From NCBI GenBank assembly GCA_044225175.1, contig JBGAJA010000003.1, positions 197,428-261,427 of the forward strand: a stretch of DNA of 64,000 nucleotides, given 5' to 3'. Below, piece by piece: positions 432-60,409 of the stretch (the first letter of the stretch is position 1; the number at the start of each line of letters is the position of its first letter). The notes beneath the pieces were generated by a model that made no database searches, was not told where the DNA came from, and saw only the letters and a list, made by a program, of their open reading frames with translations. The position numbers were made by a program, and so were the translations under genes. The stretch comes from Candidatus Omnitrophota bacterium (GTDB lineage Bacteria; Omnitrophota; Gorgyraeia; Zapsychrales; Fredricksoniimonadaceae).

Positions 432-3230
432 ATGTATAAACGATTTATCGCTTCCCTGATTATTCTTACCTTCAGTTGTACTTTAATAACTCCCCAAGCT
501 AACGCAGCACAAGAATCTTTAAATTTACCTATACCCGGCACCATGATTAACCTAAGCCCTGCGTTTGAACCAACCTTAATCAAAGGTCTAACAGTTCATA
601 AAGATAACCCATTTTTGTTTGATTTCATCGTAGATACCGGCAATTCAGGATTATCGTTAGAGATGACCGGCCGGTCGTCTCTACGGGAAGAATCTGACCG
701 ATTAATCAAATATTTTTTCGCCTGTCTGACAGTCCCTGAGAAAGACCTGTGGGTTAACCTATCCCCCTATGAAAAAGACCGAATAGTCCCAGAAGCATTA
801 GGCCAAACAGCCTTAGGACGCGATCTTCTGGCTCAAGACTATATCCTTAAACAGCTAACCGCTTCGCTGATATACCCTGAAAAAGACCTAGGGAAAGAAT
901 TTTGGAACAGAGTGTATGCCAAAGCACAAGCCATGTACGGCTCCAATGCCCAGATACCAGTTAACACCTTTAATAAGGTATGGATCCTAGCAGATAAGGC
1001 AACGGTCTACGAACATGGACAAACAGCCTTTGTAGTTAATGGGCATTTGAAGGTGATGTTGGAAGAAGATTATCTAGCCAGAGACAAGAATCACAAAAAG
1101 GTGTCAGACACCTTTTTGAGCAGTCAAATTATCCGTGATATCGTCATTCCTGAAATCGAAAAAGAAGTCAATACCGGTAAAAACTTCGCTACCTTACGCC
1201 AAATCTTCAATTCCCAGATTCTAGCCACATGGTACAAAAAGAACCTCAAAGAAGCTCTCATCAATCAGGTCTATACTGATAAAAACACCATCAAAGGTGT
1301 AAATTTATCAGACCCATCAGTCAAAGAGCACATTTACCAGCAATACCTTCAGGCCTACAAGAAGGGTGTATTCAACTATGTCAAAGAAGATAAACAAGCC
1401 AATGGCCAGGCAGTTCCAAGAAAATATTTCTCAGGCGGGTATCAAGGGGCCAATGCAGCCATGCTCATAGTATCTCATGATTCTAAGCAGGTTGAGGGAG
1501 CTTTGATGTCAACAGGAAATAGATTCCGTTTTCAAATAGCTCTTGCCATCAATAGTGATTCCGCCATGGCAGCTAGCGAGAGTATGTTTTCTAAAATGGC
1601 AGAAAAGGATATTCATAGTCTTCAAAATTGGCTGGCCCACACAAATAATTTTTTTGATATAAGTAAGATGCCTTTTGATGAGAAATTATCTGTGATTGGC
1701 GCAGATCTTAAATTAACAGTTCTTCCTACTTTAGAAGAATTAGAGCTATTGACTCAAGTTGAAATAATGATGTTAACCTTTGAAGGTAAGGCAGAGACGC
1801 CAATTAATCTTTTAAAAGACTTAGTGGTAAAGATAGCGCAGGATGATTCACTAAAGAAATTATTTGCCAACCCTTCCATTCAAATCCGGCTTAAAGCAGT
1901 AAAAACTCAAGAGATTGAACTAAATATATTATTTAATTTTCTAAAACAAATACTTGGAATAAGTGAACGTACTGTCCCCACAGGAGAGTTTAGCAGAGTG
2001 AAAGGAGGGGTCGTCTGGCAGAAACATGGTGTGAAAGGTGCTGAAAAGAATCCGTCAGTAATTCCTGCTGTCGTTGCATTCATTGATGATGGTTTATATG
2101 AAGTTGGGATTCATCAATCCCACATGGGTGAGATATTAAAACTCACTCCACAATCCCCAAATATGTTGGAACGATTAGTAGAATTATTAAATAAAAATGT
2201 CATTACGGTTCAAAATAAGATCAGACCTCTAACGCCTGAAGAAGTGATAATCTTTGCAAAGATTATTTCTGAAGAAAGAACAGCTTTACAAAATGTCCCT
2301 TTAAAATCTGCAACACTCCTTCCATCCTATCTTAATGCAGATCAGTTGAATGATTTGATTTTGTCGATTGTTAATAAGTATGATATTAAAACTGGTTTAA
2401 AGAAATCTGATTCAGCCATGGCTGCTAAACCCAAAGAAACTCAATCTTCGAATTTAGCTAAGGGCGTAAATTTTGAAGAATTAGACAGAGAAAACAAAGA
2501 GCTAATCCAAAAATTACCAAAGCAGGGAGGCTTAACCTTATCTGATCCCCTCAGCGAACGTCCGATGCAACCAACAGATACCTTTGAGATTCCCTTGGAT
2601 TCATTGAGAATTTACCCCGTCATAGTAACCGTTAATGGTTCCAACCCTTTACGAATTCTCAGAAATCAATTGGGAAAGGACGTCCATTTCCAAGCAGGAT
2701 GGTTAGGGGTGAGAGAACTATTAAACCCAGGTCTCTTTGACTTTACGAAGGGGCGTTGGAGAGTGATTCAATCTGATGGAAGAGAGAAAATTTCTCCATC
2801 TCTTAAAATTGAAGTCACCCCTGACAAACTGATTATTTCTACTACCGACTTTAGAGTTGGAGATCTAAGCATTCGATATTTTGATCAAAGTAATAAAGCC
2901 ATGGTGGTGGCTAAACCAGCAGGAAAATTTGCCGATGCAGCGATGGCGACTAAAAGCGAGACAGTAGCTGATAAAGTAACAATTACGGAAAAATTACCAC
3001 CCGGTGGTATCGACTTAAACTCAGCCAATATGGGTATGATGGTGACCAAGGATGCTAATGGCGGGGTGAAGGTTAATTTTGACCCTGCCATGATTGAACG
3101 CATAAAATCTCAAGGTGTGTTCTCGGCCGATCCGATTATTATTCAAATCACCCCAATCAATGCAACCCAGATACGCCCATTGCTTGGATTCAAAGATCTC
3201 GAGCAAACTCAAAAGCTGGCGAAAGTTTAG
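432..3230 (+). CDS. Large secreted protein, paralog A (932 aa). Signal peptide, then a conserved ~330 aa N-module and ~90 aa C-module shared with the CDSs at 37066, 40893 and 44630; unique central region
   Basis: AAGGAG RBS 8 nt before the ATG. N-terminus MYKRFIASLIILTFSCTLITPQANA is signal-peptide-like. The N-module (LPIPGTMINLSPAFEP...FLFDFIVDTGNSGLSLE...KYFSGG) is ~85% identical to paralog C. The C-module is PGGIDLN...ERIK.QG.FSA.P.II.ITP. No known family recognised. Confidence 0.8.
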   Translation: MYKRFIASLIILTFSCTLITPQANAAQESLNLPIPGTMINLSPAFEPTLIKGLTVHKDNPFLFDFIVDTGNSGLSLEMTGRSSLREESDRLIKYFFACLTVPEKDLWVNLSPYEKDRIVPEALGQTALGRDLLAQDYILKQLTASLIYPEKDLGKEFWNRVYAKAQAMYGSNAQIPVNTFNKVWILADKATVYEHGQTAFVVNGHLKVMLEEDYLARDKNHKKVSDTFLSSQIIRDIVIPEIEKEVNTGKNFATLRQIFNSQILATWYKKNLKEALINQVYTDKNTIKGVNLSDPSVKEHIYQQYLQAYKKGVFNYVKEDKQANGQAVPRKYFSGGYQGANAAMLIVSHDSKQVEGALMSTGNRFRFQIALAINSDSAMAASESMFSKMAEKDIHSLQNWLAHTNNFFDISKMPFDEKLSVIGADLKLTVLPTLEELELLTQVEIMMLTFEGKAETPINLLKDLVVKIAQDDSLKKLFANPSIQIRLKAVKTQEIELNILFNFLKQILGISERTVPTGEFSRVKGGVVWQKHGVKGAEKNPSVIPAVVAFIDDGLYEVGIHQSHMGEILKLTPQSPNMLERLVELLNKNVITVQNKIRPLTPEEVIIFAKIISEERTALQNVPLKSATLLPSYLNADQLNDLILSIVNKYDIKTGLKKSDSAMAAKPKETQSSNLAKGVNFEELDRENKELIQKLPKQGGLTLSDPLSERPMQPTDTFEIPLDSLRIYPVIVTVNGSNPLRILRNQLGKDVHFQAGWLGVRELLNPGLFDFTKGRWRVIQSDGREKISPSLKIEVTPDKLIISTTDFRVGDLSIRYFDQSNKAMVVAKPAGKFADAAMATKSETVADKVTITEKLPPGGIDLNSANMGMMVTKDANGGVKVNFDPAMIERIKSQGVFSADPIIIQITPINATQIRPLLGFKDLEQTQKLAKV
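658..683 (+). repeat. 26 bp near-perfect palindrome (tagagatgaccgg|ccggtcgtctcta) inside the paralog A coding sequence, encoding ..LEMTGRSSL..
   Basis: The two halves are reverse complements with one T/G (wobble-compatible) mismatch. Homologous palindromes lie at 37295..37320 and 41128..41153. Confidence 0.8.
1095..1117 (+). repeat. 23 bp perfect palindrome AAAAAGGTGTCAGACACCTTTTT embedded in paralog A's variable linker (encodes KKVSDTF)
   Basis: Exact reverse-complement symmetry. Two more copies lie at 60114..60139 and 60155..60177 inside another ORF. Confidence 0.85.
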
Positions 3231-13025: not shown

Positions 13026-13061
13026 TTGATCTCTTTCATTGATAATGGGTTAAGACATAGT

Positions 13062-13106
13062 AAACCCCTTACAATTTAATAAATTGTGAGGGGTTTAATG
13101 TTTTTA
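13062..13106 (+). terminator. Rho-independent terminator after msrA
   Basis: 16 bp stem (aaaccccttacaattt / aaattgtgaggggttt, one G·U wobble), 3 nt loop, then a T5 run. Confidence 0.6.
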
Positions 13107-36699: not shown

Positions 36700-36740
36700 T
36701 GAAGGCATTAAAACTCTTTCATTGGTCATTAGTCGTTTTA

Positions 36741-36772
36741 AAACCCTCTGATTACAATTCAGAGGGTTTTTT
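36741..36772 (+). terminator. Rho-independent terminator after small gene 1
   Basis: 10 bp stem aaaccctctg / cagagggttt, 9 nt loop, T6 run. Confidence 0.7.
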
Positions 36773-37065: not shown

Positions 37066-40000
37066 ATGTTCAAAAGATTGATCTCTATTTTACTTATTCT
37101 GACCTTTTGCAATGAAACCTTTATGGTTTCTCCTGCAATAGCTTTAGAAGGTAATATACAGCTGCCTGTTGCAGGATCTATGGTCAATTTAAGTCCTGCC
37201 TTTGAACCGGTCCTTATTAAAGGGTTAACCATTCATAAAGAAAATCCATTTCTGTTTGATTTTATCGTGGATACTGGAAATTCAGGATTATCGTTAGAGA
37301 CGCAGCATGCTGCGTCTCTACGTAAGGAATCTGAGAGATTAATCAAATACTTCTTCGCTTGTTTGACCATTCCAGAAAATGACCTATGGGTCAACCTTTC
37401 GCCATACGAGAAACAGCGTATGGTTCCAGAAGCCCTGGGACAAACCGCCCTGGGTCGAGATCTTTTAGCTCAAGACTATATCCTTAAACAGCTCACTGCA
37501 TCCTTGATCTATCCTGAGCGTGAGCTGGGAAAAGAGTTTTGGAATCGAGTCTACGCTAAAGCCCAAGCAATGTATGGGCCAAACGTTCAAATACCAGTCA
37601 ATACATTTAATAAGGTATGGATCCTGGCAGACAAGGCCAGTGTGCACGAACGAGGCCAGAGCGTGTTTGTGGTCGATGGGCATCTCAAAGTAATGTTGGA
37701 AGAAGATTATCTAGCCGTAGACAAGAGCCTACAGCCAACCAGGGGATATGTTCAGAACAAAATTAACAGGAACGTGTCCCCAAGCACATTGCCAAGCGAC
37801 GTAGTATTGAATACGAAAGCACCCCAGGGAAACCCCGTTAACGCCATCGGAAGCCAAATCATCCGAGACATCATCCTCCCTGAAATCGAAAAAGAAGTCA
37901 ACGAGGGCAAGAATTTTGCAACCTTACGTCAGATTTTTAATTCTCTGATTCTAGCAACCTGGTATAAGAACAATCTCAAAGACTCGATTCTTAATCAGCT
38001 TTATTCTGATAAGAACATCGTCAAAGGTATCAACCTTTCTGATTCTTCAATCAAAGAGAAAATTTATCAGCAATATCTTCAGGCTTATAAGAAGGGAGTA
38101 TTTAACTATATTAAGGACGATCCACAGGCCAGTGGTCAAAATATTCCCAGAAAGTATTTCTCTGGCGGTTTTGGGGCAAAGAAAGGTTTTTTAAGTAAAA
38201 TTAGTTCTGCTAAGGCCCACCATCCTACGGGTCGTGATTATGTTATGAAAGTTGGATTGGATGTGCAAGGCTCCGCAAATTTGTTCGATCAGGCACAGAT
38301 AGCAAGGGCACTCCACTCTTTAAGGGTTTTTCTTATGGGTTCTATTGTAGCGTCAGGAGCAATATCAAATCTAGCAACGGGTTACCAGCAGCCAGTTATT
38401 CAAGAAACATCAGAAAATCTCTCTGATCATCCATTAAAGACACCAAACGGTAATATTCATATTTTCCCATCTCTTCATGCAAGTAATAAAAGTAGAGAAA
38501 AGCTTGAAAAGGCTTTAAAGACTTTTGATGAATTTTATAAACAACAAAATAAAGATAGGAAGCAATTCACAGAAGCAGCAAAAGTAGCAATAGGGGCTAT
38601 AGATCAATTCTTAAATGATAATAGTTACGTCCTAGAAGATCAGAAAAAGCAAGTACCGGATTTGATAGGAAAGATTACAAACAACCACATCAAATATCTT
38701 TCACCTGAGGGTGTCCCCGTAGAAATGGATGGGGTAACAATGCAAGAGATGATTATGAAGGCGAATAATGAATATACAAAACTTGAAGAACAATTAGAAC
38801 CTCTAAAGAATTTAGGTTGGAAAGGAAGTGTCTTGAATGTTTATAGCTTATCAAGAGGGACAATTGCTTTTTTATGCAGAACTTACGGTGATTTTTTAAT
38901 TCAGCAGGAAGTAGAGATCTTTCCGGTAGACTTACTGATGTGGGGAAATATGGGAGAGAAGATGGAAGTTGAATTTATGATGTATGGTTTCACAGAGGAA
39001 GAAGCTCAGAATGAATCTTTACAATTGAAAGGAGATGCCAGAAATAGGTTTACTGCTTTTAGAGTTAATAATGGATCTCAATGGAACAGAATAACGCATA
39101 AAAACGTGAGCTTCGAGCCACCCCTAGGTAACAAGGATATTATCATTGGAAATGGACATACAGTTACGCAGTTAGAAGAAAATTCTCCTAAAGTTAAAAC
39201 TACACTTCAAGGAGAAATTAAAAGACAACAGTTAAGGCCAAATAGTGAGATTGATTCAACTATAGAGCTTGATAGGGATGTTCTTATGCTTCAATTGAAT
39301 GCAGATCCTGTATTTAAGTATCTTTACGGAGAAGTAACAAAAGAAGATTTAACGAATTGGAGCAGGAATGGCACAGTGTATCAGCCGCTAATAGAGATTA
39401 TTAAAGAAGACACCTTAGGTCCAATGACTAAACTGTCGAAACTGTCAAAAGACCCTAAAACTATCGCAGATCCGTCAAATTTGAAATTTATCTTCTTTAA
39501 CAGTCCCAAAAACAATGAATTTGGAATTAAGAAGGGAAACCTTTTTGTTTATAGGGTAGGCTCGCGCGTCTATGTTTTAGTACCTTTAGATGCTTTTCAA
39601 GAGAACGTAAATGATGCGCACAAAATGACGTTTTTACTTAAATGCGCTTTATTAGCATTAGTAGATCAAGACAAGGGATTAACGTTGTTGGAGCAAGAGA
39701 TCAAGGCTATGAGGATGTTTAGAGACATGCTTTTAAAATATGATCCAAACTCAAGCCGCCGTACGATAGAAGTATATCAAGAGTTAGCGGCAAGGTTTCA
39801 ATCATTAGATAATAATATAAAAAGTATTGAAGAGTATATTGATTGGAGCTTTACGAAGGTTGATGTTTCAAAATTGAGATATTATGAATCTAAACGTGAT
39901 GAAGAGGATCCTAAGATTATAGTTGTACAGTTGTTTGATCCACAAACAGTTAATCAAGATGGAAAAGCAACCTTCATTAATGTCAAGATAGTTGAAGGTG

Positions 40001-40290
40001 AAGCTCCAGTAGTTAAAGAGGAATTAGGTCAGATTTCAAATCCAGCTATGATTAGTGAAGATAGAGAAGAAATGTCGCAATTATTAAGAGTGACGGAAAC
40101 ATCGCCAGGGGGTATCGATTTAAATACCACTGATATGGGTATGGCAGTGACAAAAGATGGCTCTGGTGTTGATATGTCTGCCTTCGGCGGAAATCCAGCC
40201 ATGTTAGAACGTATCAAGGCCCAAGGGATCTTTTCAGCAGAACCAATCATTATTGAAATTACCCCTGTAACCGCTTTAATGTACGAATAG
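37066..40290 (+). CDS. Large secreted protein, paralog B (1074 aa from MFKRL). Central region is homologous to paralog C but not to A or D
   Basis: Signal peptide; N-module and C-module shared with A, C and D. The ORF tracker's 36976 start runs back into the pseudogene remnant. Confidence 0.8.
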   Translation: MFKRLISILLILTFCNETFMVSPAIALEGNIQLPVAGSMVNLSPAFEPVLIKGLTIHKENPFLFDFIVDTGNSGLSLETQHAASLRKESERLIKYFFACLTIPENDLWVNLSPYEKQRMVPEALGQTALGRDLLAQDYILKQLTASLIYPERELGKEFWNRVYAKAQAMYGPNVQIPVNTFNKVWILADKASVHERGQSVFVVDGHLKVMLEEDYLAVDKSLQPTRGYVQNKINRNVSPSTLPSDVVLNTKAPQGNPVNAIGSQIIRDIILPEIEKEVNEGKNFATLRQIFNSLILATWYKNNLKDSILNQLYSDKNIVKGINLSDSSIKEKIYQQYLQAYKKGVFNYIKDDPQASGQNIPRKYFSGGFGAKKGFLSKISSAKAHHPTGRDYVMKVGLDVQGSANLFDQAQIARALHSLRVFLMGSIVASGAISNLATGYQQPVIQETSENLSDHPLKTPNGNIHIFPSLHASNKSREKLEKALKTFDEFYKQQNKDRKQFTEAAKVAIGAIDQFLNDNSYVLEDQKKQVPDLIGKITNNHIKYLSPEGVPVEMDGVTMQEMIMKANNEYTKLEEQLEPLKNLGWKGSVLNVYSLSRGTIAFLCRTYGDFLIQQEVEIFPVDLLMWGNMGEKMEVEFMMYGFTEEEAQNESLQLKGDARNRFTAFRVNNGSQWNRITHKNVSFEPPLGNKDIIIGNGHTVTQLEENSPKVKTTLQGEIKRQQLRPNSEIDSTIELDRDVLMLQLNADPVFKYLYGEVTKEDLTNWSRNGTVYQPLIEIIKEDTLGPMTKLSKLSKDPKTIADPSNLKFIFFNSPKNNEFGIKKGNLFVYRVGSRVYVLVPLDAFQENVNDAHKMTFLLKCALLALVDQDKGLTLLEQEIKAMRMFRDMLLKYDPNSSRRTIEVYQELAARFQSLDNNIKSIEEYIDWSFTKVDVSKLRYYESKRDEEDPKIIVVQLFDPQTVNQDGKATFINVKIVEGEAPVVKEELGQISNPAMISEDREEMSQLLRVTETSPGGIDLNTTDMGMAVTKDGSGVDMSAFGGNPAMLERIKAQGIFSAEPIIIEITPVTALMYE

Positions 40291-40762: not shown

Positions 40763-40796
40763 TAAGACCCTCTGTGATTACAGAGGGTCTTTTTTT
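40763..40796 (+). terminator. Rho-independent terminator after small gene 2
   Basis: 11 bp stem aagaccctctg / cagagggtctt, 6 nt loop, T8 run. Confidence 0.75.
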
Positions 40797-40892: not shown

Positions 40893-43800
40893 ATGTTTAA
40901 ACAGTTGATTGCTTTTCTAATCATTTTGACCTTCAGTACTTCCTCAATTTATGTGCCTCAGGCGCAAGCCATAGAGAAGCCATATCTTTTGTCTTTGCCT
41001 GTTCCAGGCACAATGGTCAATTCAAGCCCATCCTATGAACCTGCATTAATCAAGGGGTTGACCATTCATAAAGACAACCCATTTTTGTTTGATTTTATTG
41101 TGGATACGGGTAATTCTGGATTATCGTTAGAGACGACCGGCCGCTCGTCTCTACGCGAAGAATCTGACCGTTTAATTAAATATTTTTTCACCTGCCTGAC
41201 AGTTCCAGAAACAGACCTCTGGGTCAATTTGTCACCTTATGAGAAAGACCGTATTGTTCCTGAAGCATTGGGAGAAACGGCCTTAGGACGAGATTTGCTT
41301 GCCCAAGACTATATCCTTAAACAACTGACTGCATCGCTAATTTATCCCGAGAAAGACTTAGGCAAGGAGTTCTGGAGCCGTGTTTATGCCAAAGCACAAG
41401 CCATGTATGGCTCTAATGTTCAGATTCCAGTTAATACCTTTAATAAGGTATGGATCCTGGCAGACAAAGCAAGTGTTTATGAAAATGGCCAGAGCGTGTT
41501 TGTGGTTGACGGACATTTGAAAATTATGTTAGAAGAAGATTATTTGGCCCTTCAGAAGAACCACATTTCCTCTCCCCACAAGGGGAAGGAAACCAGTTCT
41601 ATCGGATCCCAAATCATCCGCGACATCGTCCTTCCTGAAATAGAAAAAGAAGTCAACCATGGCAAGAATTTCGCAACTCTACGACAAATTTTCAACTCTC
41701 TCATTCTAGCTAGCTGGTATAAGAAAAATCTCAAAGACTCTATTCTTAATCAGCTCTATTCTGATAAAAATACGGTTAAAGGCATTAATCTTTCAGATAT
41801 CTCAGTGAAAGACCAGATTTATCATCAATATCTTAAAGCTTATAAGAAGGGAGTATTTAACTATATTAAGGAAGACCCTTCGACTGACTCTCAGGGCAAG
41901 TCCCAAGCAATTTCCAGGAAATACTTCTCTGGTGGTTTTGGAGTAAGGAAAGATTTCTTAAGCAAGGCAAGTCCTGCTATGGCGGCCCAAAAACTCGGCC
42001 GTACAACAGGTCAAGATTATGCTATGAAGGTAAGGTTGAATGTAGAAGCCCCATCTAACTTATCAGATCAAGCACAAATAGCTGCTGCAATAAGATATCT
42101 CAGAGCATTTTTGATTGGATCGATATTATCCTCAGGATTTATTGAAAATAATGTGAATAGCTATCAACAGCCAGAAACTCTAGAAGCTACTTTCAAAGAA
42201 GCACAAAATGTTCCTGAATCCTCAGTTCAAACACCTAAAGGAGAAATTACTTTTTTCCCGGCTGATCATGTAAGTATGGATAGTATCGAAGAATTGGAAA
42301 AGGCTTTGAATTCTTTCGATAAGAATGAGGCTAATAAAGCCATTGATAAGTTCTCTACACAGAACAGAGCAATATTAGAGGGGCAGAGAAGTCAAGTCGA
42401 AGATATGATCGATAAGATTAAAAGAAATCATATCAAATACCTTTCACCAGAGGGAGTATCCGCAGATATGGAAGGGATGTCAATGCAAGAGGTGATCGCA
42501 CTGGCTCGCGAGCAATACACTACACTGGAAGCCCAATTAGAAAAATTAGGTCGTAAAGAAAGCGCTGAGGATCTTTATTTAGGAATAACTGGTCCTACTT
42601 CCTTTTTATGTTTGATGCATGGGGATGTCTTAATACAGCAGGGTGTTGAACTCTTTCCTATTGATTTGCCGATTTGGGGCAATATGGCGAGAGATATCAA
42701 AATAAAGCTTGAGAAACAGGGGATAACAGGAAAAGAAGCATGGGAAACAGCTTTTTCTCTTATGTTAACAAGTAGAAATAAGTTTATGGCGTACAGATTT
42801 TTCCAGGGACCACAAGGCAAAAAAGGTAGCTCTATGGGACCCTTTCACACAGGTGAGAAACCTGAAGGAGAGAATCCTCCTAGAATTGATTCGACCTTAC
42901 CGGGTGAAATTGAAAAACTAATTGAAAAATCAAAATCAAGCCCCGCCATTGAAATTGATCCGAAGGTTGAATCAGATCGTAAAGAACTTATTGCGCGTTT
43001 GAATGCTGACCCTGTATTTAATTTGCTTTATGGGGATGTAAACACAGAAAATATCAAATCATGGAGTAAGAATGGATTGCAGTATCAGCCTTTGATAGAC
43101 ATCGTGACTAAGTACACCTTGGATCCAATGAGTAAGGCATTCCAAATTTCTATCGCAGATCCTTCTAATTTAAGATTTGTATTCTTTGAAAGTCCTAAAA
43201 ATAATGAATTTGCAATGAAGAGAGGGCATCTTTTTACTTATAAAGTCGGCTCTCGCACGTACATCTTAATACCTTTAGATACTTTTCAAAAAGCCAGGGC
43301 AGCAGAAGCAGTAGCTTTCTTACTTAAAAGTGCCTTGGTAGCTTTAATGGATCAAGACAAGACAGTACCAGCAATGAAAAGAGACATAGATATTCTTACC
43401 TATTTTAGAGGAATCCTATCGAATTATGATAACAATCCTTCTTTTAAGGAGAGAAATTTAGAAACAAAAACAAGGTTTGAACTTATACAGAGTAATATAA
43501 GTGGTGTTGAACAGGCTATTCATAAGGATTTGCCGCAAGTTGATGTTGCAAAATTGCGATATTATGATTCTAAGCGTGATAAAAAGGACCCTACGGTTAT
43601 ATTTGCTCAATTCTTCGATCCACAAACTGTCACCAGGGATGGAAAAGTTCCCTTTATTAAAGTAAATATAATTGATAAGCCTGGATCAACAGTTACAGTC
43701 AAGCAAGAACCTGGTCAAATTAGCAATCCAGCGATGATTGGTGAAGAAGATATACAATCGAAAGTAACGCCAGGGGGTATTGATTTGAATACTACTGACA

Positions 43801-43976
43801 TGAGTATGGCCGTGACCAAGGATGCTGGAGGAGTCAAGATGAATCTGCCAGCCAGAGGCTGGTCCGCCTCCGGCGGAGATTCAGCCATGCTTGAGCGTAT
43901 CAAAGTTCAGGGGGTATTTTCGGCCACTCCTGTAATTATTGAAATTACACCTGTGAGTTCTTTAAGGTACAAATAA
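40893..43976 (+). CDS. Large secreted protein, paralog C (1027 aa from MFKQL)
   Basis: N-module ~85% identical to A. Central region shares blocks with B (NHIKYLSPEGV, LNADPVF, ADPSNLRFVFFESPKNNEF, VDVAKLRYYDSKRD). C-module conserved. Confidence 0.8.
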   Translation: MFKQLIAFLIILTFSTSSIYVPQAQAIEKPYLLSLPVPGTMVNSSPSYEPALIKGLTIHKDNPFLFDFIVDTGNSGLSLETTGRSSLREESDRLIKYFFTCLTVPETDLWVNLSPYEKDRIVPEALGETALGRDLLAQDYILKQLTASLIYPEKDLGKEFWSRVYAKAQAMYGSNVQIPVNTFNKVWILADKASVYENGQSVFVVDGHLKIMLEEDYLALQKNHISSPHKGKETSSIGSQIIRDIVLPEIEKEVNHGKNFATLRQIFNSLILASWYKKNLKDSILNQLYSDKNTVKGINLSDISVKDQIYHQYLKAYKKGVFNYIKEDPSTDSQGKSQAISRKYFSGGFGVRKDFLSKASPAMAAQKLGRTTGQDYAMKVRLNVEAPSNLSDQAQIAAAIRYLRAFLIGSILSSGFIENNVNSYQQPETLEATFKEAQNVPESSVQTPKGEITFFPADHVSMDSIEELEKALNSFDKNEANKAIDKFSTQNRAILEGQRSQVEDMIDKIKRNHIKYLSPEGVSADMEGMSMQEVIALAREQYTTLEAQLEKLGRKESAEDLYLGITGPTSFLCLMHGDVLIQQGVELFPIDLPIWGNMARDIKIKLEKQGITGKEAWETAFSLMLTSRNKFMAYRFFQGPQGKKGSSMGPFHTGEKPEGENPPRIDSTLPGEIEKLIEKSKSSPAIEIDPKVESDRKELIARLNADPVFNLLYGDVNTENIKSWSKNGLQYQPLIDIVTKYTLDPMSKAFQISIADPSNLRFVFFESPKNNEFAMKRGHLFTYKVGSRTYILIPLDTFQKARAAEAVAFLLKSALVALMDQDKTVPAMKRDIDILTYFRGILSNYDNNPSFKERNLETKTRFELIQSNISGVEQAIHKDLPQVDVAKLRYYDSKRDKKDPTVIFAQFFDPQTVTRDGKVPFIKVNIIDKPGSTVTVKQEPGQISNPAMIGEEDIQSKVTPGGIDLNTTDMSMAVTKDAGGVKMNLPARGWSASGGDSAMLERIKVQGVFSATPVIIEITPVSSLRYK

Positions 43977-44500: not shown

Positions 44501-44519
44501 AATTTGGTGTTATCTTAAG

Positions 44520-44549
44520 AACCCTGTACCATACGGTACAGGGTTTTTT
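44520..44549 (+). terminator. Rho-independent terminator after small gene 3
   Basis: 11 bp stem aaccctgtacc / ggtacagggtt, 4 nt loop, T6 run. Confidence 0.75.
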
Positions 44550-44629: not shown

Positions 44630-47467
44630 ATGTATACTAAGGTCCTAATGCTTAAGCGTTGCATATCTTTCTTTATTCTTTTGTGTTTCACCTATACTTC
44701 GGTAATTCCACCTGCCTATGCCCAGGAAATGATTCATTTACCTATACCTGGTCAGATGTTAGATCCTAGTCCAGTTTTTAATTTTCCTATAATTAAAGGT
44801 TTAACTATTCATCCTGAGAATCCTTTGCAGTTCGATTTTTTGATTGATCCTGGCCAGGGCAATCTTTCCCAGAAAGATAAACAAATTGAATATCAGAAGA
44901 TTATTAAGTATTTTTTGGCTTCTTTGACTGTTCCTGAGAAGGACTTATGGGTCAATCTTTCTCCTTATGAAAAGAACCGCATGATTCCTGATAGTTTTGG
45001 CAAGACAGAGATGGGAAGAGATCTTCTGGCTCAAGACTATATTCTCAAGCAAATTACAGCATCGCTCATGTATCCAGAGAAGGAGCTAGGGAAAAGCTTT
45101 TGGAATAAGGTCTATCAAGAAGCTCAGAATCGTTTTGGCAATACCGATATTCCCGTGAACACCTTCAATAAAGTTTGGATAGTCCCGGACAAGGCATCGG
45201 TGTATGAGAAGGAGAATACGGTATTTCTGGTAGAAGGGCATTTGAAGGTGATGTTGGAGGAGGATTATCTGGCCATCCAAAAACACCACCAGGGAAAGGG
45301 AACCAATTCTATCGGCAGCCAAATCATCCGTGAAATCATTCTCCCTGCCATTGAAGAAGAAGTCAACCAAGGCAAAAATTTTGCCAACCTCCGCCAAATC
45401 ACCAATTCATTGATCCTTGCGACGTGGTATAAGACCGCCCTTAAACAAAGCCTTCTGAATAAGATTTATGCGGATAAAAGTAAAGTAGAAGGTGTTAACC
45501 TAGATGATCCTAAGGACAATCAAAAGATTTACCAACGATACCTCCAAGCCTTCAAAAAAGGCGTTTATAACTACATCAAAGAAGAATCAGACCCAGTGAC
45601 CAAAGAATTCATCCCTAGAAAATATTTTTCTGGAGGGTTTTCACCAGACTTAGATGGAGTCATGTTAGGTCAACGCATTAAGCAACTAGATCTAATCAAA
45701 GATGCAGCCTTAATAGCAAAAGTTACGAAGAGTACTTTTGTATTAGATCAAACCCAAGTTTTATTAAAAGATGTGCCAAATCATCCTTATGGGAATGAAA
45801 GTTTTATTAGTAGAGAGTTGGATAAATTATTTCAAACTTATATTGATTTTCATTCTTGGTTGTCAAAGAAGAGGCAACAGAGAGTGCTTTTAGTTGGTGT
45901 TGGAAGAGGGCTAGCAGCTATGCAATTAGCACTGAGATATCCCAATTTAGAAATTATTGCGGTCAATAAAGAAAGCGACTTATGGTCTGATAAAATTATT
46001 GGAGATTATCTAGTCAGTACAGGTGTGCGCAAGAAAGATGTTACAGCCGCACGAAAAAGGATAACCTTAAACATAGTTGATTTAGATTCTGAATCAGGAA
46101 AGCAACAAATTTTTAAAGAAAGATATGATGCGATTATTTTCGAGCCATTCGTTCTAATATATTTTAGAGATAAAGTAAAAGCAATTGAAGCTGCCTACAA
46201 TGCATTAAATCCTAATGGATTTTTAGGGTTTGAAAAAAATAGAATTCTGGCATCAAATAAGAATAAGGAAGAAGAAGTTCTTAACGTTTTGTTAAGCAGT
46301 CTTGCTGCACCAAGGCCAATAATAGATACTGTAAATAGTGTTCAATTAATTAAGAAAAGTTCAAAAAAAATAAATATTCCTCTTAAGTTAAAACGTTCAG
46401 AATTAGCTGCAATACCTAATTATTCTAGTGTTAAGCCAATAAATTCTTTTTATTCATTAGACCAAGCGCAAGTTACATTGCAGGAGCCAACGTATTCGTC
46501 TGATTCAGCAATGGCATCTAAACAAAAAGATACGCAAATAAATAAGCGCGATCAGAAATACCATTATGAATGGTCCATTGACCATTTAGGCAAAGGCAGC
46601 GTGGAGATCAATTATTCCCCTATGCAGAATAAAACATGGGTGGAATATACTGCACCAGGTGAACTTAAGAAAAAAGCTGAATTATCGGGGAAGCATGTAG
46701 TTCCTATGAAAAACAAATTTTATTCGGGCATGGATGGAGACATAAAGATATTTCCTTATATTGTCTCTAAAGGTTTTTCGGAATTGTTAAAAAAAGCAGG
46801 CATCCCATTAAAGTTTCTAGTTCCAGATACAATTCCTAACCGAGTAAGAGTTTTTATATTTGCTTTAACTCAAGCAGGTATAAGTATTGGAAATTCGGAT
46901 CAATTAAAAGACAGCCCACAATTTGCTCAAGGTGGCAAGCAAGATGAGGCTATGGTCGCGATAAGTCCGATTAATTGGAAGATAGTAGAAGGACAAGGCT
47001 ATCCTTTTGAGATTTCTAAGGATAAAGATACAAAAATTGCACCTATTGTTCGTCATTATTATGTGACTTTCAATGGGAAACGTGTGACATTCGCAGATAG
47101 GAAACAGTCTAGCTCAAGTGTTCTTTATATTTATGCCGATCGAAAGATCGTTCATATGGAATCATTTAATCCATTATTTCCTAGAACCAAAGAAATGCGC
47201 CAAAAAGTAAGTCAAGATCTTGGAGGTATTGACCTTAACCCAAGGAATTTTAACCTCCAAATCAAACGCGACGGTAAGGGTGTGCCTTTGCCGGTCGAGT
47301 TTCAGGATGTTGAGCATATCAATGTACGTGGATTTATTCCTGTGATTATCAAAATTACGCCTGTTTCGAATCTGAGATTGTTGTTAGGAATGGCAGAGAA
47401 CAAAGAGCTCCCGAAAATCCCATCCAATTCAGAAGCACATTTCCCACAATACGCGCTTAAGGAATAA
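44630..47467 (+). CDS. Large secreted protein, paralog D (945 aa; most divergent). Central region contains a SAM-dependent methyltransferase-like segment
   Basis: Conserved N-module (~60% identical to A) and C-module (GGIDLN...ITPVSNL). Central segment RVLLVGVGRGLAAM...YDAIIFE...LNPNGFLGF resembles class I MTase motifs I, II and III. Confidence 0.75.
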   Translation: MYTKVLMLKRCISFFILLCFTYTSVIPPAYAQEMIHLPIPGQMLDPSPVFNFPIIKGLTIHPENPLQFDFLIDPGQGNLSQKDKQIEYQKIIKYFLASLTVPEKDLWVNLSPYEKNRMIPDSFGKTEMGRDLLAQDYILKQITASLMYPEKELGKSFWNKVYQEAQNRFGNTDIPVNTFNKVWIVPDKASVYEKENTVFLVEGHLKVMLEEDYLAIQKHHQGKGTNSIGSQIIREIILPAIEEEVNQGKNFANLRQITNSLILATWYKTALKQSLLNKIYADKSKVEGVNLDDPKDNQKIYQRYLQAFKKGVYNYIKEESDPVTKEFIPRKYFSGGFSPDLDGVMLGQRIKQLDLIKDAALIAKVTKSTFVLDQTQVLLKDVPNHPYGNESFISRELDKLFQTYIDFHSWLSKKRQQRVLLVGVGRGLAAMQLALRYPNLEIIAVNKESDLWSDKIIGDYLVSTGVRKKDVTAARKRITLNIVDLDSESGKQQIFKERYDAIIFEPFVLIYFRDKVKAIEAAYNALNPNGFLGFEKNRILASNKNKEEEVLNVLLSSLAAPRPIIDTVNSVQLIKKSSKKINIPLKLKRSELAAIPNYSSVKPINSFYSLDQAQVTLQEPTYSSDSAMASKQKDTQINKRDQKYHYEWSIDHLGKGSVEINYSPMQNKTWVEYTAPGELKKKAELSGKHVVPMKNKFYSGMDGDIKIFPYIVSKGFSELLKKAGIPLKFLVPDTIPNRVRVFIFALTQAGISIGNSDQLKDSPQFAQGGKQDEAMVAISPINWKIVEGQGYPFEISKDKDTKIAPIVRHYYVTFNGKRVTFADRKQSSSSVLYIYADRKIVHMESFNPLFPRTKEMRQKVSQDLGGIDLNPRNFNLQIKRDGKGVPLPVEFQDVEHINVRGFIPVIIKITPVSNLRLLLGMAENKELPKIPSNSEAHFPQYALKE

Positions 47468-51968: not shown

Positions 51969-51973
51969 CGTAG

Positions 51974-51998
51974 GGGCGGGTTTTAAACCCGCCCGTTT
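51974..51998 (+). terminator. Hairpin terminator after trxA (short T-tail)
   Basis: gggcggg-ttttaaa-cccgccc followed by GTTT. Confidence 0.45.
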
Positions 51999-58560: not shown

Positions 58561-58591
58561 TTTTTAAGGTGCAATGACGATCTTAAACTAA

Positions 58592-58624
58592 AGTTATCCC
58601 GCTAACAAAGCGGGATAACTTTTT
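58592..58624 (+). terminator. Rho-independent terminator
   Basis: 11 bp stem agttatcccgc / gcgggataact, 7 nt loop, T4 run. Confidence 0.7.
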
Positions 58625-58641: not shown

Positions 58642-59121
58642 ATGGGAAACGAAGTCTATTTAACTCGCAAAGGTTTTCAAAAATTACAAGAAAAGTTAGA
58701 AGCTTTAAAAACAACAGAGCGTCAGAAGATTGCAAAAGCAATTGGTGAGGCCAGAGCGCAGGGGGATATTTCTGAAAATGCTGAATATGACGCGGCTAAA
58801 GACGCTCAGGCTCATAATGAGGCGCGTATTGCGGATTTAGAAGGTCAATTGGTAAATGTGCGTATTATTGAAAATGAGAATATTCCTTCAGACAAGATTT
58901 ATATTGGTGCTATTGTGACGTTAGAAGATTTGGATAACGACGAAGAATTAACATATATGCTTGTTTCTCCGGAAGAGGCGAGTTACGAAGAAAACAAGAT
59001 TTCTATTTTTTCACCAATTGGAAAAGGTCTTTTGGGACATAAACCCGGTGAGACGGTTTCTATCAAAGTTCCAGCTGGAACGCTTAACTACAAAATCAAG
59101 AAACTTAAGCGTCCTTCTTAA
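58642..59121 (+). CDS. greA: Transcription elongation factor GreA
   Basis: N-terminal coiled coil (LTRKGFQKLQEKLEALK...) plus an FKBP-like C-terminal domain. Confidence 0.9.
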   Translation: MGNEVYLTRKGFQKLQEKLEALKTTERQKIAKAIGEARAQGDISENAEYDAAKDAQAHNEARIADLEGQLVNVRIIENENIPSDKIYIGAIVTLEDLDNDEELTYMLVSPEEASYEENKISIFSPIGKGLLGHKPGETVSIKVPAGTLNYKIKKLKRPS

Positions 59122-60409
59122 AGAAGCTTATTCCCATCCATAGAAATACAGAAGGCATGAGTGCAAAGATAATACGATGCAGGGTATTATCCATCCACCA
59201 TTTGATATCATCGAAAAACATATTTGTCTGATAATAGGCAATTGTGACCATCAGATAGGCGGCCATAAAAAGACCTATAATTGCCAAAGGTTTTTGAAAA
59301 GCCTTTTTCCATCCTAATCCTATCCCCAAAGCAGCCAGCGCCCACAGCCCCATCCACTTAAGGCTCAAGAATTCAAAGAGGGTATAACTTAAAATAAAAA
59401 GAAATCTTGGGAAGGTTGATGGTTTTTCAGGTGAGAGAAGACCATTAATAAAGGCATCGCCATGAGGAGCCATGGTTAGTGTGAAAATAATCATAGGTAG
59501 GGCTGCAAGAAAGATTGTTCCAATGATTTTCCACAATTGAGATGGCTTCTCAATAAGAAGAAGGATGCATAAGATTCCTGCCGCTGCCAGGCCTTCATTT
59601 TTAGTAAATGAAAGAAGTCCTATAAAAATGGCTGATAAGATTAAGAATCGAAAGTCTCTAAGTTCAACAGAAAGCAGATAACAAACGAAAAAGCAAAGTA
59701 AGTAAAGACCAAAGAGAACATCGCTATATTGGCTTATAAATAAAGTATTTCCAAATGCCAAGGTAAATACCGCCCCTGTTATTAATGTCGAATAGAGGAT
59801 TGATACGCCCAAAGCTTGAAGTCCAAGGAGCAAAACTCCTGCTGTGACTAGTGTTAAGACGATAGCATTCAACATACAAACGTTTTGAGAGAATCCTGTC
59901 CATTGCCAAAACCAAACATTGAGAGTGGGTAAACCTAATGGGTATCCAGTATTACTACGCCATAAAATCGGACTAAACATGTCTTTCCAATGATGTTCCC
60001 CAAAATAGATAAATTTCGCTTTAAGGTTCCAGCAAGACCAAGCATCCCACCCCCCCATAGGATAATGACAAGCTTCAAACCATAGAGGAACAGCCAAAAC
60101 AGGCAATACCAGCAAAAAAGGTGTCAGACACCTTTTTTTGCTAAAACACTCTTCAAAAAGGTGTCTGACACCTTTTTGATTAAGCCAGATTAGGAGTCCT
60201 AAAAGTATGATGCTTACAAGGAGAGGTAAGAAGTGGTTGAAGTTATTGCCAACAAGTTGCAAATAAAAGATGATTTGGCTAACAAGACCAAATCCTAAAG
60301 CTGCACCTAAGAAGATTGATAATTGGTTTAACGGACGATTTTTAAGAACAAGACGCAGGCACAATGTCCCTAAGCACACGGCTATTAATAAAGCTATAAG
60401 ATACATCAT
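59105..60409 (-). CDS. Polytopic membrane protein, possibly a GT39/83-like glycosyltransferase; its coding sequence hosts two copies of a 23 bp palindrome
   Basis: ~11-12 TM helices; convergent with greA (3' ends overlap). Family not firmly recognised. Confidence 0.4.
   Translation of the reverse strand: MMYLIALLIAVCLGTLCLRLVLKNRPLNQLSIFLGAALGFGLVSQIIFYLQLVGNNFNHFLPLLVSIILLGLLIWLNQKGVRHLFEECFSKKRCLTPFLLVLPVLAVPLWFEACHYPMGGWDAWSCWNLKAKFIYFGEHHWKDMFSPILWRSNTGYPLGLPTLNVWFWQWTGFSQNVCMLNAIVLTLVTAGVLLLGLQALGVSILYSTLITGAVFTLAFGNTLFISQYSDVLFGLYLLCFFVCYLLSVELRDFRFLILSAIFIGLLSFTKNEGLAAAGILCILLLIEKPSQLWKIIGTIFLAALPMIIFTLTMAPHGDAFINGLLSPEKPSTFPRFLFILSYTLFEFLSLKWMGLWALAALGIGLGWKKAFQKPLAIIGLFMAAYLMVTIAYYQTNMFFDDIKWWMDNTLHRIIFALMPSVFLWMGISFFKKDA
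60114..60177. repeat. Two copies of the same 23 bp palindrome (aaaaaaggtgtcagacacctttttt and aaaaaggtgtctGacaccttttt), 15 bp apart, inside the minus-strand membrane-protein ORF
   Basis: Sequence read directly. The centre base alternates A/T, so the copies are in opposite orientation. They are translated in two different frames (SKKRCLTPFL and QKGVRHLF). Confidence 0.85.

Follow-up and report, generated by a model that had tools for sequence, protein, structure and literature searches.

The described systems closest to the element considered here are the REPs (repetitive extragenic palindromic sequences) of the GTAG type and their REP-associated tyrosine transposases (RAYTs). The transposase TnpA_REP needs the GTAG tetranucleotide and a hairpin in single-stranded DNA, and it tolerates swaps of the upper stem (PMC8266576). 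GTAG REP families are split into sub-families by complementary changes in the stem, and intragenic REPs, which encode 7–9 residues, are a documented minority, most of them in Opitutus terrae, a bacterium of the Planctomycetes-Verrucomicrobia-Chlamydiae (PVC) group (PMC3733652). Here we investigate a stretch of 64,000 nucleotides (nt) from a Candidatus Omnitrophota bacterium (GenBank assembly GCA_044225175.1, contig JBGAJA010000003.1, positions 197,428 to 261,427 of the forward strand), hereafter the window, in which three paralogous genes, A, B and C, each contain a palindrome of 26 nt within the coding sequence; a fourth paralog, D, has none. A sequence-only reading of this DNA had offered a choice of explanations. 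Are the palindromes RNA signals or recombination sites of these particular genes? Or, are they the footprint of a small mobile element? Our analysis points to the latter: the three palindromes are very probably intragenic copies of a GTAG-type REP, a short hairpin-forming element of a transposase-associated class.

Direct reading of the three genes bears out that the palindromes occupy the same codon position. The half-sites are tagagatgaccgg and ccggtcgtctcta in A (658–683), where 12 of the 13 pairs are formed and one is a T:G mismatch; tagagacgcagca and tgctgcgtctcta in B (37295–37320), with all 13 pairs; and tagagacgaccgg and ccgctcgtctcta in C (41128–41153), with 12 of 13 pairs and one C:C mismatch. 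The copies are alike in position, reading frame (TTA GAG A(C/T)G ... TCT CTA CGN), loop length and flanks (GGATTATCGTTAGAGA ... TCTCTACG), and including the flanks they can be written as TTAGAGA(C/T)G-N10-CGTCTCTAC. On the plus strand all three end in CTCTAC, which reads GTAG on the minus strand and there forms the head of the A element; since the opposite end is TTAG, the copies have a defined orientation. That the core of B is wholly different and still symmetric also proved correct: B and C are identical in the arms and immediate flanks, and differ at 10 of 10 core positions.

The arm pattern is found in the window at these three positions alone, even with three mismatches allowed, against a mean of 0.08 in dinucleotide shuffles, and hairpins of at least 11 pairs number 13 in the window versus 1–3 in shuffles. 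On these counts a chance palindrome is ruled out. A synthetic artefact involving BsmBI sites (GAGACG/CGTCTC) is likewise ruled out, as the sites lie in frame in three diverged paralogs and the same unit is present in hundreds of natural contigs.

Outside the window the same arms define a dispersed repeat family. The 28-nt unit GTAGAGACG-N10-CGTCTCTAC is present in 152 copies in 116 IMG/VR stretches, with 120 unique flanks and an information content that falls to zero immediately beyond the 28 nt. The one-sided form TTAGAGAYG-N10-CGTCTCTACG, which is the form seen in the window, was found in at least 130 copies in at least 120 metagenome stretches, with several copies per contig. The anatomy of the family is a constant lower stem with GTAG/CTAC ends around more than 100 different self-complementary cores; 55 distinct cores occur in the viral set and 65 among the metagenome matches listed, nearly all of them self-complementary. 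At the five core pairs, 44, 52, 51, 33 and 45 of the 55 viral-set cores have Watson-Crick pairing. An alignment of 61 sequences, the window copies among them, has 14, 28 and 30 double-sided changes at the three free stem pairs; when covariation was tested at this level, the score was reached by none of 500 shuffles and all slid registers collapsed. Dyad symmetry is, at the level of the family, a property of the repeat itself: the lower stem and GTAG are constant and the upper stem is free provided that it is paired. The proposal that the symmetry is a matter of the nucleic acid rather than of the encoded peptide is upheld.

Within the limits of the searchable supplements, the 24 GTAG families published so far do not include the GTAGAGACG stem. 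Literature searches with the literal sequence returned unrelated matches only, mostly papers on human genes and primers, and searches with the encoded peptides returned none. Within the one catalogue that has searchable supplements, the widespread GTAGAGACG-core-CGTCTCTAC REP family with its divergent RAYT-like partner is, as far as this extends, undescribed. End hairpins of an IS200/IS605 element were considered for L085 (L numbers denote fetched loci) and rejected, the two copies there, 1857 nt apart, merely standing between phage capsid and protease genes. Two other loci contain arrays that resemble REP clusters of the bacterial interspersed mosaic element (BIME) type: four copies at a spacing of about 55 nt in L250 (6286–6480), and three copies in alternating orientation adjoining a RAYT-like gene in L269 (133–410).

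The link to a transposase comes from a tblastn search of all fetched DNA, for which the query was an E. coli RAYT sequence and then the hits themselves. RAYT-like genes were present in 12 of 120 metagenome loci among the matches listed, and in all 12 the repeats lie 3–60 nt from the ends of the RAYT-like gene, inside it, or both, often in alternating orientation. Repeats that flank a RAYT gene are the diagnostic arrangement of a REP/RAYT system (PMC2817692, PMC3733652). The proteins have an HUH motif and a C-terminal Tyr motif; the three that were tested match the NCBIfam model NF047646 (REP-associated tyrosine transposase) with E values of 2e-13 to 2e-17, and one also has a weak match to Pfam Y1_Tnp. 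Taken with this association and the family covariation, the agreement of the B arms with the family consensus at 19 of 20 positions supports the suggestion of a small palindromic mobile element. Some copies are in frame within the RAYT-like genes themselves (L247 1357, L227 1668, L202 7816, L243 581 and 641, L303 446, L286 2160 and L311 2779). The copy stands just after the strand of the HUH motif in L247, L227, L202 and L243, and before the motif in L303 and L311; L243 has three copies, and one such protein reads ...VVINKP-VETQNIASLQ-NGPKNRFGPQ....

Table 1. Palindromic elements, host paralogs and other hairpins of the window, with positions counted from its first nucleotide
Feature	Positions	Strand	Sequence	Core	Remarks
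REP-type palindromic element, paralog A	657..684	-	TTAGAGATGACCGGCCGGTCGTCTCTAC (+ strand)	ACCGGCCGGT	encodes L-E-M-T-G-R-S-S-L
REP-type palindromic element, paralog B	37294..37321	-	TTAGAGACGCAGCATGCTGCGTCTCTAC	CAGCATGCTG	encodes L-E-T-Q-H-A-A-S-L
REP-type palindromic element, paralog C	41127..41154	-	TTAGAGACGACCGGCCGCTCGTCTCTAC	ACCGGCCGCT	encodes L-E-T-T-G-R-S-S-L
Paralog A	432..3230	+			932 amino acids (aa); secreted; conserved N-domain of ~345 aa; no Pfam match
Paralog B	37066..40290	+			1074 aa; tandem with C; sister of C
Paralog C	40893..43976	+			1027 aa; element = residues 79-87
Paralog D	44630..47467	+			945 aa; outgroup copy without element; usual 17-residue loop
Second palindromic repeat, copy in A	1092-1120				in second variable loop of A (HKKVSDTFLS)
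Second palindromic repeat, further copy	60114-60138				in membrane protein gene
Second palindromic repeat, further copy	60153-60179				in membrane protein gene
Membrane protein gene	59105-60409	-			
Terminator-like hairpin	36740-36770		AAAACCCTCTGATT...		upstream of B
Terminator-like hairpin	40764-40791		AAGACCCTCTGTGA...		gap between B and C
Terminator-like hairpin	44517-44548		AAGAACCCTGTACC...		gap between C and D
Intergenic hairpin	13061-13097				
Intergenic hairpin	51972-51996				
Intergenic hairpin	58590-58622				

The host genes encode proteins in which the N-domain and a C-terminal GGIDLN...ITP segment are conserved, the middle parts diverge and a signal peptide is present; three of the four paralogs in the window stand in tandem (Table 1). 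None of these proteins has a Pfam match, and the fold of the N-domain has no match in the PDB. More than 1200 homologs were found, the best 70% identical; nearly all those labelled with an organism are from Omnitrophota, and the proteins of the source contig, which is 272,723 bp long, form singleton clusters. In an AlphaFold2 model of the N-domain of C (mean predicted local distance difference test score 81.9), residues 79–87, which the element encodes, join the strand 66–71 to the helix 84–103. The element thus sits in frame in the strand-to-helix connector of three paralogous secreted proteins of Omnitrophota. The gaps that border the tandem paralogs contain terminator-like hairpins that resemble one another, and further hairpins lie in other intergenic regions of the window.

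The element appears to have entered these genes once. In a neighbour-joining tree A, B and C form a monophyletic group, and the relatives nearest to it (L003, L001 and L002) have loops of 17–19 residues without a hairpin. B and C, which are also tandem neighbours, are sisters: in the C-terminal part this pairing is supported by 492 informative sites, against 191 and 177, and the N-domain gives 99, against 78 and 64. From these relationships we infer a single insertion in the gene ancestral to all three, before the duplications, and take the core shared by A and C as ancestral. D, according to the sequence-only reading, had a short palindrome at the homologous site and had lost residues there. 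Neither statement was correct: cctggccagg (44849–44858) lies five codons upstream of the element site and consists of P-G-Q codons, the same short palindrome recurs in many homologs with PGQ or VGQ, and D has the 17-residue loop that is usual for the family, so that it never had the insertion rather than having lost it.

After the duplication that separated B and C, the 10-nt core of B was swapped as a block and not by stepwise compensatory mutation, since the arms are perfectly conserved and yet 10 of 10 core positions differ, in a pair of genes with an overall identity of 75%. The new core is of the canonical family type: its closing pair is the usual C...G, and its inner octamer, AGCATGCT, is a common one. 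The exact 22-mer of B, GAGACGCAGCATGCTGCGTCTC, is also present in an unrelated viral contig, L319; the core type of A and C was not found in the viral sequence where this 22-mer was. Of the coordinated change proposed for the core, then, the symmetric change itself is real, and what does not stand is covariation built up step by step within the gene, as the replacement was by a family type that already existed.

Might such palindromes have arisen de novo? Template switching during replication is well known to produce clustered changes by which inverted repeats become perfect, and quasi-palindrome errors of this sort, without any mobile or repeated element, could have made B perfect by copying one arm onto the other. 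The perfect 26-mer of B and the small net length change relative to sister loops would fit such an origin. The product, however, should be a unique palindrome derived from adjacent sequence, whereas the arms of B follow the consensus of a dispersed family, its full 22-mer exists elsewhere, and the family-wide search found copies with the same arms in other organisms; chance convergence on the sequence of B is not credible, and we regard de novo origin as very improbable. Template switching may nevertheless be a way in which upper stems stay symmetric within the repeat family.

A role in recombination fares no better. The conserved N-domain and divergent C-terminal parts of these proteins could reflect a shufflon-like system in which site-specific recombination or gene conversion shuffles N- and C-terminal parts among the paralogs, with the palindromes as symmetric crossover sites. 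Yet all of the genes are on one strand, no recombinase is present among the 20 window open reading frames (ORFs) scanned, and with the 10 core sites excluded the phylogenetic signal shows no change of relationship across the palindrome. A breakpoint at the palindrome was accordingly rejected for want of any signal in the informative sites, and the idea of a recombination or gene-conversion hotspot, which had been put forward for this site, is extremely unlikely.

The remaining suggestion was a gene-specific RNA structural or regulatory element, that is, an mRNA hairpin selected within the ORF as a translational pause, RNase site or regulator and kept by compensatory evolution. The RNA hairpins of A, B and C are predicted to fold at -20 to -24 kcal/mol (z-scores -2.0 to -3.9), the mismatch of A becomes a G:U wobble on the sense strand, and the arms are identical at every synonymous site in paralogs that are otherwise 72–75% identical, a possible hint of constraint. 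The arms amount to a run of seven identical codons, though, and equally long runs occur elsewhere in the paralog alignment, so that this one is not unusual and nucleotide-level constraint on the arms was rejected. Nor do D and the nearest relatives have the hairpin, its sequence is that of a repeat family with more than 250 occurrences in unrelated contexts, the core of B is a block swap to an existing type, C has its C:C mismatch, and the Rfam covariance models gave no match at the gathering score anywhere in the window. A signal specific to these genes is improbable, because the palindromes are copies of a widespread transposase-associated repeat.

The connector was compared across 80 Omnitrophota loci and two others, the loop being counted from a conserved D to the LIKYF motif. 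In 70 genes the loop is 17–19 residues long and contains background palindromes of 4–7 pairs, with one of 8, whereas 11 of 13 loops of 22–28 residues hold a hairpin of 8–13 pairs of any class (hairpins of at least 8 pairs in 11/13 loops of 22 residues or more versus 1/70 loops of 17–19; Fisher p = 6e-11). With A, B and C taken as one event the figure is 9 of 11 long loops. In the neighbour-joining tree the long loops fall into separate clades amid short-looped sisters, from which it follows that hairpin sequences entered the loop many times. GTAG-type elements are found in the same loop in L013, L197 and the distant homolog L299, some sharing the CTA-CGG junction. The L013 hairpin, gtacgggctgggcatgcccagcccctac, is the same as B in length, frame and CA|T centre, and L197 has a GTAG...CTAC REP dimer. 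Hairpins of other classes occupy the loop in L027 and L037 (attcccgcGAAAgcgggaat, encoding VIPAKAGIQ) and in L006 (ccccctctttt..aaaagaggggg). The same hairpin classes recur in three other variable segments, which lie after the signal peptide, in the loop following the DYLA motif and near residue 300, for example in L003 (gtagaggcgcaaaattttgcgtctctac) and in L037 and L045 (gagacgccatttatggcgtctc); the low-confidence segments of the C model, residues 23–45, 224–236 and 295–302, are these other hairpin hot spots. Altogether, hairpins of at least five classes have entered the same four connectors of one protein family time and again, in many genomes.

The in-frame hairpin repeats of other classes in these connectors of homologs lie at L027 3190–3300, L037 2359–2466 and 2852–2880, L006 460–483, L001 3677–3700 and L038 3656–3727, and also in L051, L066 and L198. 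The classes include attcccgcGAAAgcgggaat, ccccctcttt..aaagaggggg (P[SL]F.KEGVRGSS), gtcccgccAACggcgggac, and a 57-nt GTAGG...CCCCTAC repeat (VGAGLVPAL..GRPQGSPL). The window itself contains a second, unrelated palindromic repeat, AAAAAGGTGTC(A/T)GACACCTTTTT (AAAAGGTGTCNGACACCTTTT), which does not have GTAG. Its three copies are all within ORFs, one in A without a change in length and two, spaced 40 nt apart, in a membrane protein, where they occupy the hypervariable loop that follows its second predicted membrane helix (Table 1). Searches of IMG/VR and of the fetched loci did not find this repeat.

Because L013, L197 and L299 gained GTAG-type elements in this loop independently, which suggests either target preference or strong filtering, one may ask whether A, B and C were hit three times at the same target rather than once. 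The different sequence type of B would be in keeping with three insertions. The identical position, frame, loop length and flanks are not, and with A, B and C monophyletic and all in possession of the element, one insertion followed by one swap is the more parsimonious history; separate insertions are unlikely.

L299, on a contig of about 70% GC, bears on how the element was accommodated. An AT-richer element, TTAGAGACGTTACATGCAACGTCTCTACG (3044–3072), lies in the same loop, and the protein reads ...FIVDSADRRSDD-LETLHATSLR-LINYFLAGLTI, so that the element takes the place of the LKxESxK segment usual there and lengthens the loop by only one residue, which suggests overwriting and not simple insertion. 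The extra length is three codons in A, B and C, one in L299 and none for the second palindrome of A; either these elements overwrite sequence, therefore, or deletions followed insertion.

For the REP explanation, the events may be set out as follows. An element of the consensus 5'-GTAG-AGACG-[8-10 nt self-complementary core]-CGTCT-CTAC would have inserted once into the ancestral A/B/C gene, in the strand-to-helix connector. By analogy with described systems, a cognate Y1 transposase (RAYT) would recognise the hairpin and GTAG in single-stranded DNA. The insertion presumably survived because the protein family has four hypervariable segments, the connector among them, and because two of the three reading frames of the element are open. 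The core of B was later exchanged in one block for a different sequence type from within the repeat family, perhaps through RAYT strand transfer, through template switching to another copy with the arms as microhomology, or through excision and re-insertion. Any current effect on the mRNA or protein is, on the REP explanation, a by-product.

Several observations weigh against this assignment, in addition to the synonymous identity of the arms given above. The RAYT-like proteins score 51–64 bits, below the NCBIfam cutoff of 80 bits. No RAYT-like gene was found in the window, by a Pfam scan of 20 ORFs and tblastn with three RAYT-like proteins, or in the 80 Omnitrophota loci. The window has just three copies, all in paralogs, and the family may be neither active nor abundant in this genome. 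TAG pairs with CTA in the element, whereas GTAG is unpaired in classical REPs, and the loop of A, B and C is 3 codons longer than in the sister genes, not 9.

A more speculative reading gives the elements a function: REP hairpins would serve as interchangeable cassettes through which this large family of secreted Omnitrophota proteins varies its exposed connectors, with upper-stem types swapped in place by a RAYT-type enzyme or by hairpin-templated repair. The change from TTGRSS to TQHAAS in B would be one example, and the same four connectors are refilled by different hairpins with little net change in length. We consider this very doubtful; if it were true, REPs would be more than passengers and would generate programmed variation in peptides.

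The REP assignment has consequences beyond this locus. REP-type elements are now seen inside genes of Omnitrophota, and a covarying hairpin in a coding region is explained without a new RNA element. Structure-dependent repeat families can mimic selected RNA structures, so caution is needed in covariation-based RNA discovery. That specific connectors of a single protein family collect such elements repeatedly is relevant to the way in which protein loops are shaped by selfish hairpin repeats, and also to the many peptides that recur in metagenomic protein databases, such as VETQNFASL, RDAINRVST and VIPAKAGIQ. The change of type in place between tandem paralogs is a concrete case of turnover of the REP upper stem.

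How does the family compare with described repeats? Rickettsia palindromic elements of the RPE-1 type, reportedly presented by Ogata and colleagues in 2000 as 'selfish DNA in protein-coding genes', are said to lie in frame at surface-exposed positions without destroying the protein. They are 100–150 bp long and confined to Rickettsia, and we know of no RAYT linked to them. The window element, at 26–28 nt with nothing conserved beyond, shares with RPE-1 only the in-frame habit. The small dispersed repeats (SDRs) of Nostocaceae, 21–27 nt long and said to have been described by Elhai and colleagues in 2008, are nearer in size. To our knowledge no transposase has been linked to SDRs, and in this they differ from the window family with its RAYT-like partner. 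What the two share is a very small stand-alone repeat with a common hairpin and compensatory changes, and SDRs have been proposed as the smallest mobile elements. They are reported only in Nostocaceae (PMC5861425).

The greatest likeness is to the GTAG REPs and their RAYTs, or REPtrons (Di Nocera 2013, PMC3733652; Nunvar 2010, PMC2817692; Corneloup 2021, PMC8266576). Shared features are a palindrome of 20–40 nt with a 5' GTAG, a lower stem that is constant below a variable and covarying upper stem, many dispersed copies, clusters in alternating orientation and a flanked Y1 transposase gene. The window copies agree in size (26–28 nt, 12–13 of 13 pairs), and in GTAG at the 5' end on the minus strand, and the family agrees in its split into sub-families. 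It differs in that GTAG is mostly base-paired with a 3' CTA(C/A), so that the unit is nearly a full palindrome, and in that the RAYT-like proteins are divergent and below the NCBIfam cutoff. Placement differs too: REPs are mainly extragenic, and the copies in the window are inside ORFs; in IMG/VR, 87 of the 152 copies lie outside ORFs of 150 aa or more. Intragenic placement has its own precedent in the REPs of O. terrae and in RPE-4 and RPE-6 of Rickettsia conorii (PMC3733652, Additional file 3), in which a single unit lies in frame in real genes, adds about 7–9 residues, and is thought to be tolerated in loops or linkers. Unlike those cases, the same four connectors of the Omnitrophota proteins have been hit in many genomes by at least five classes of hairpin, and one copy has changed type in place.

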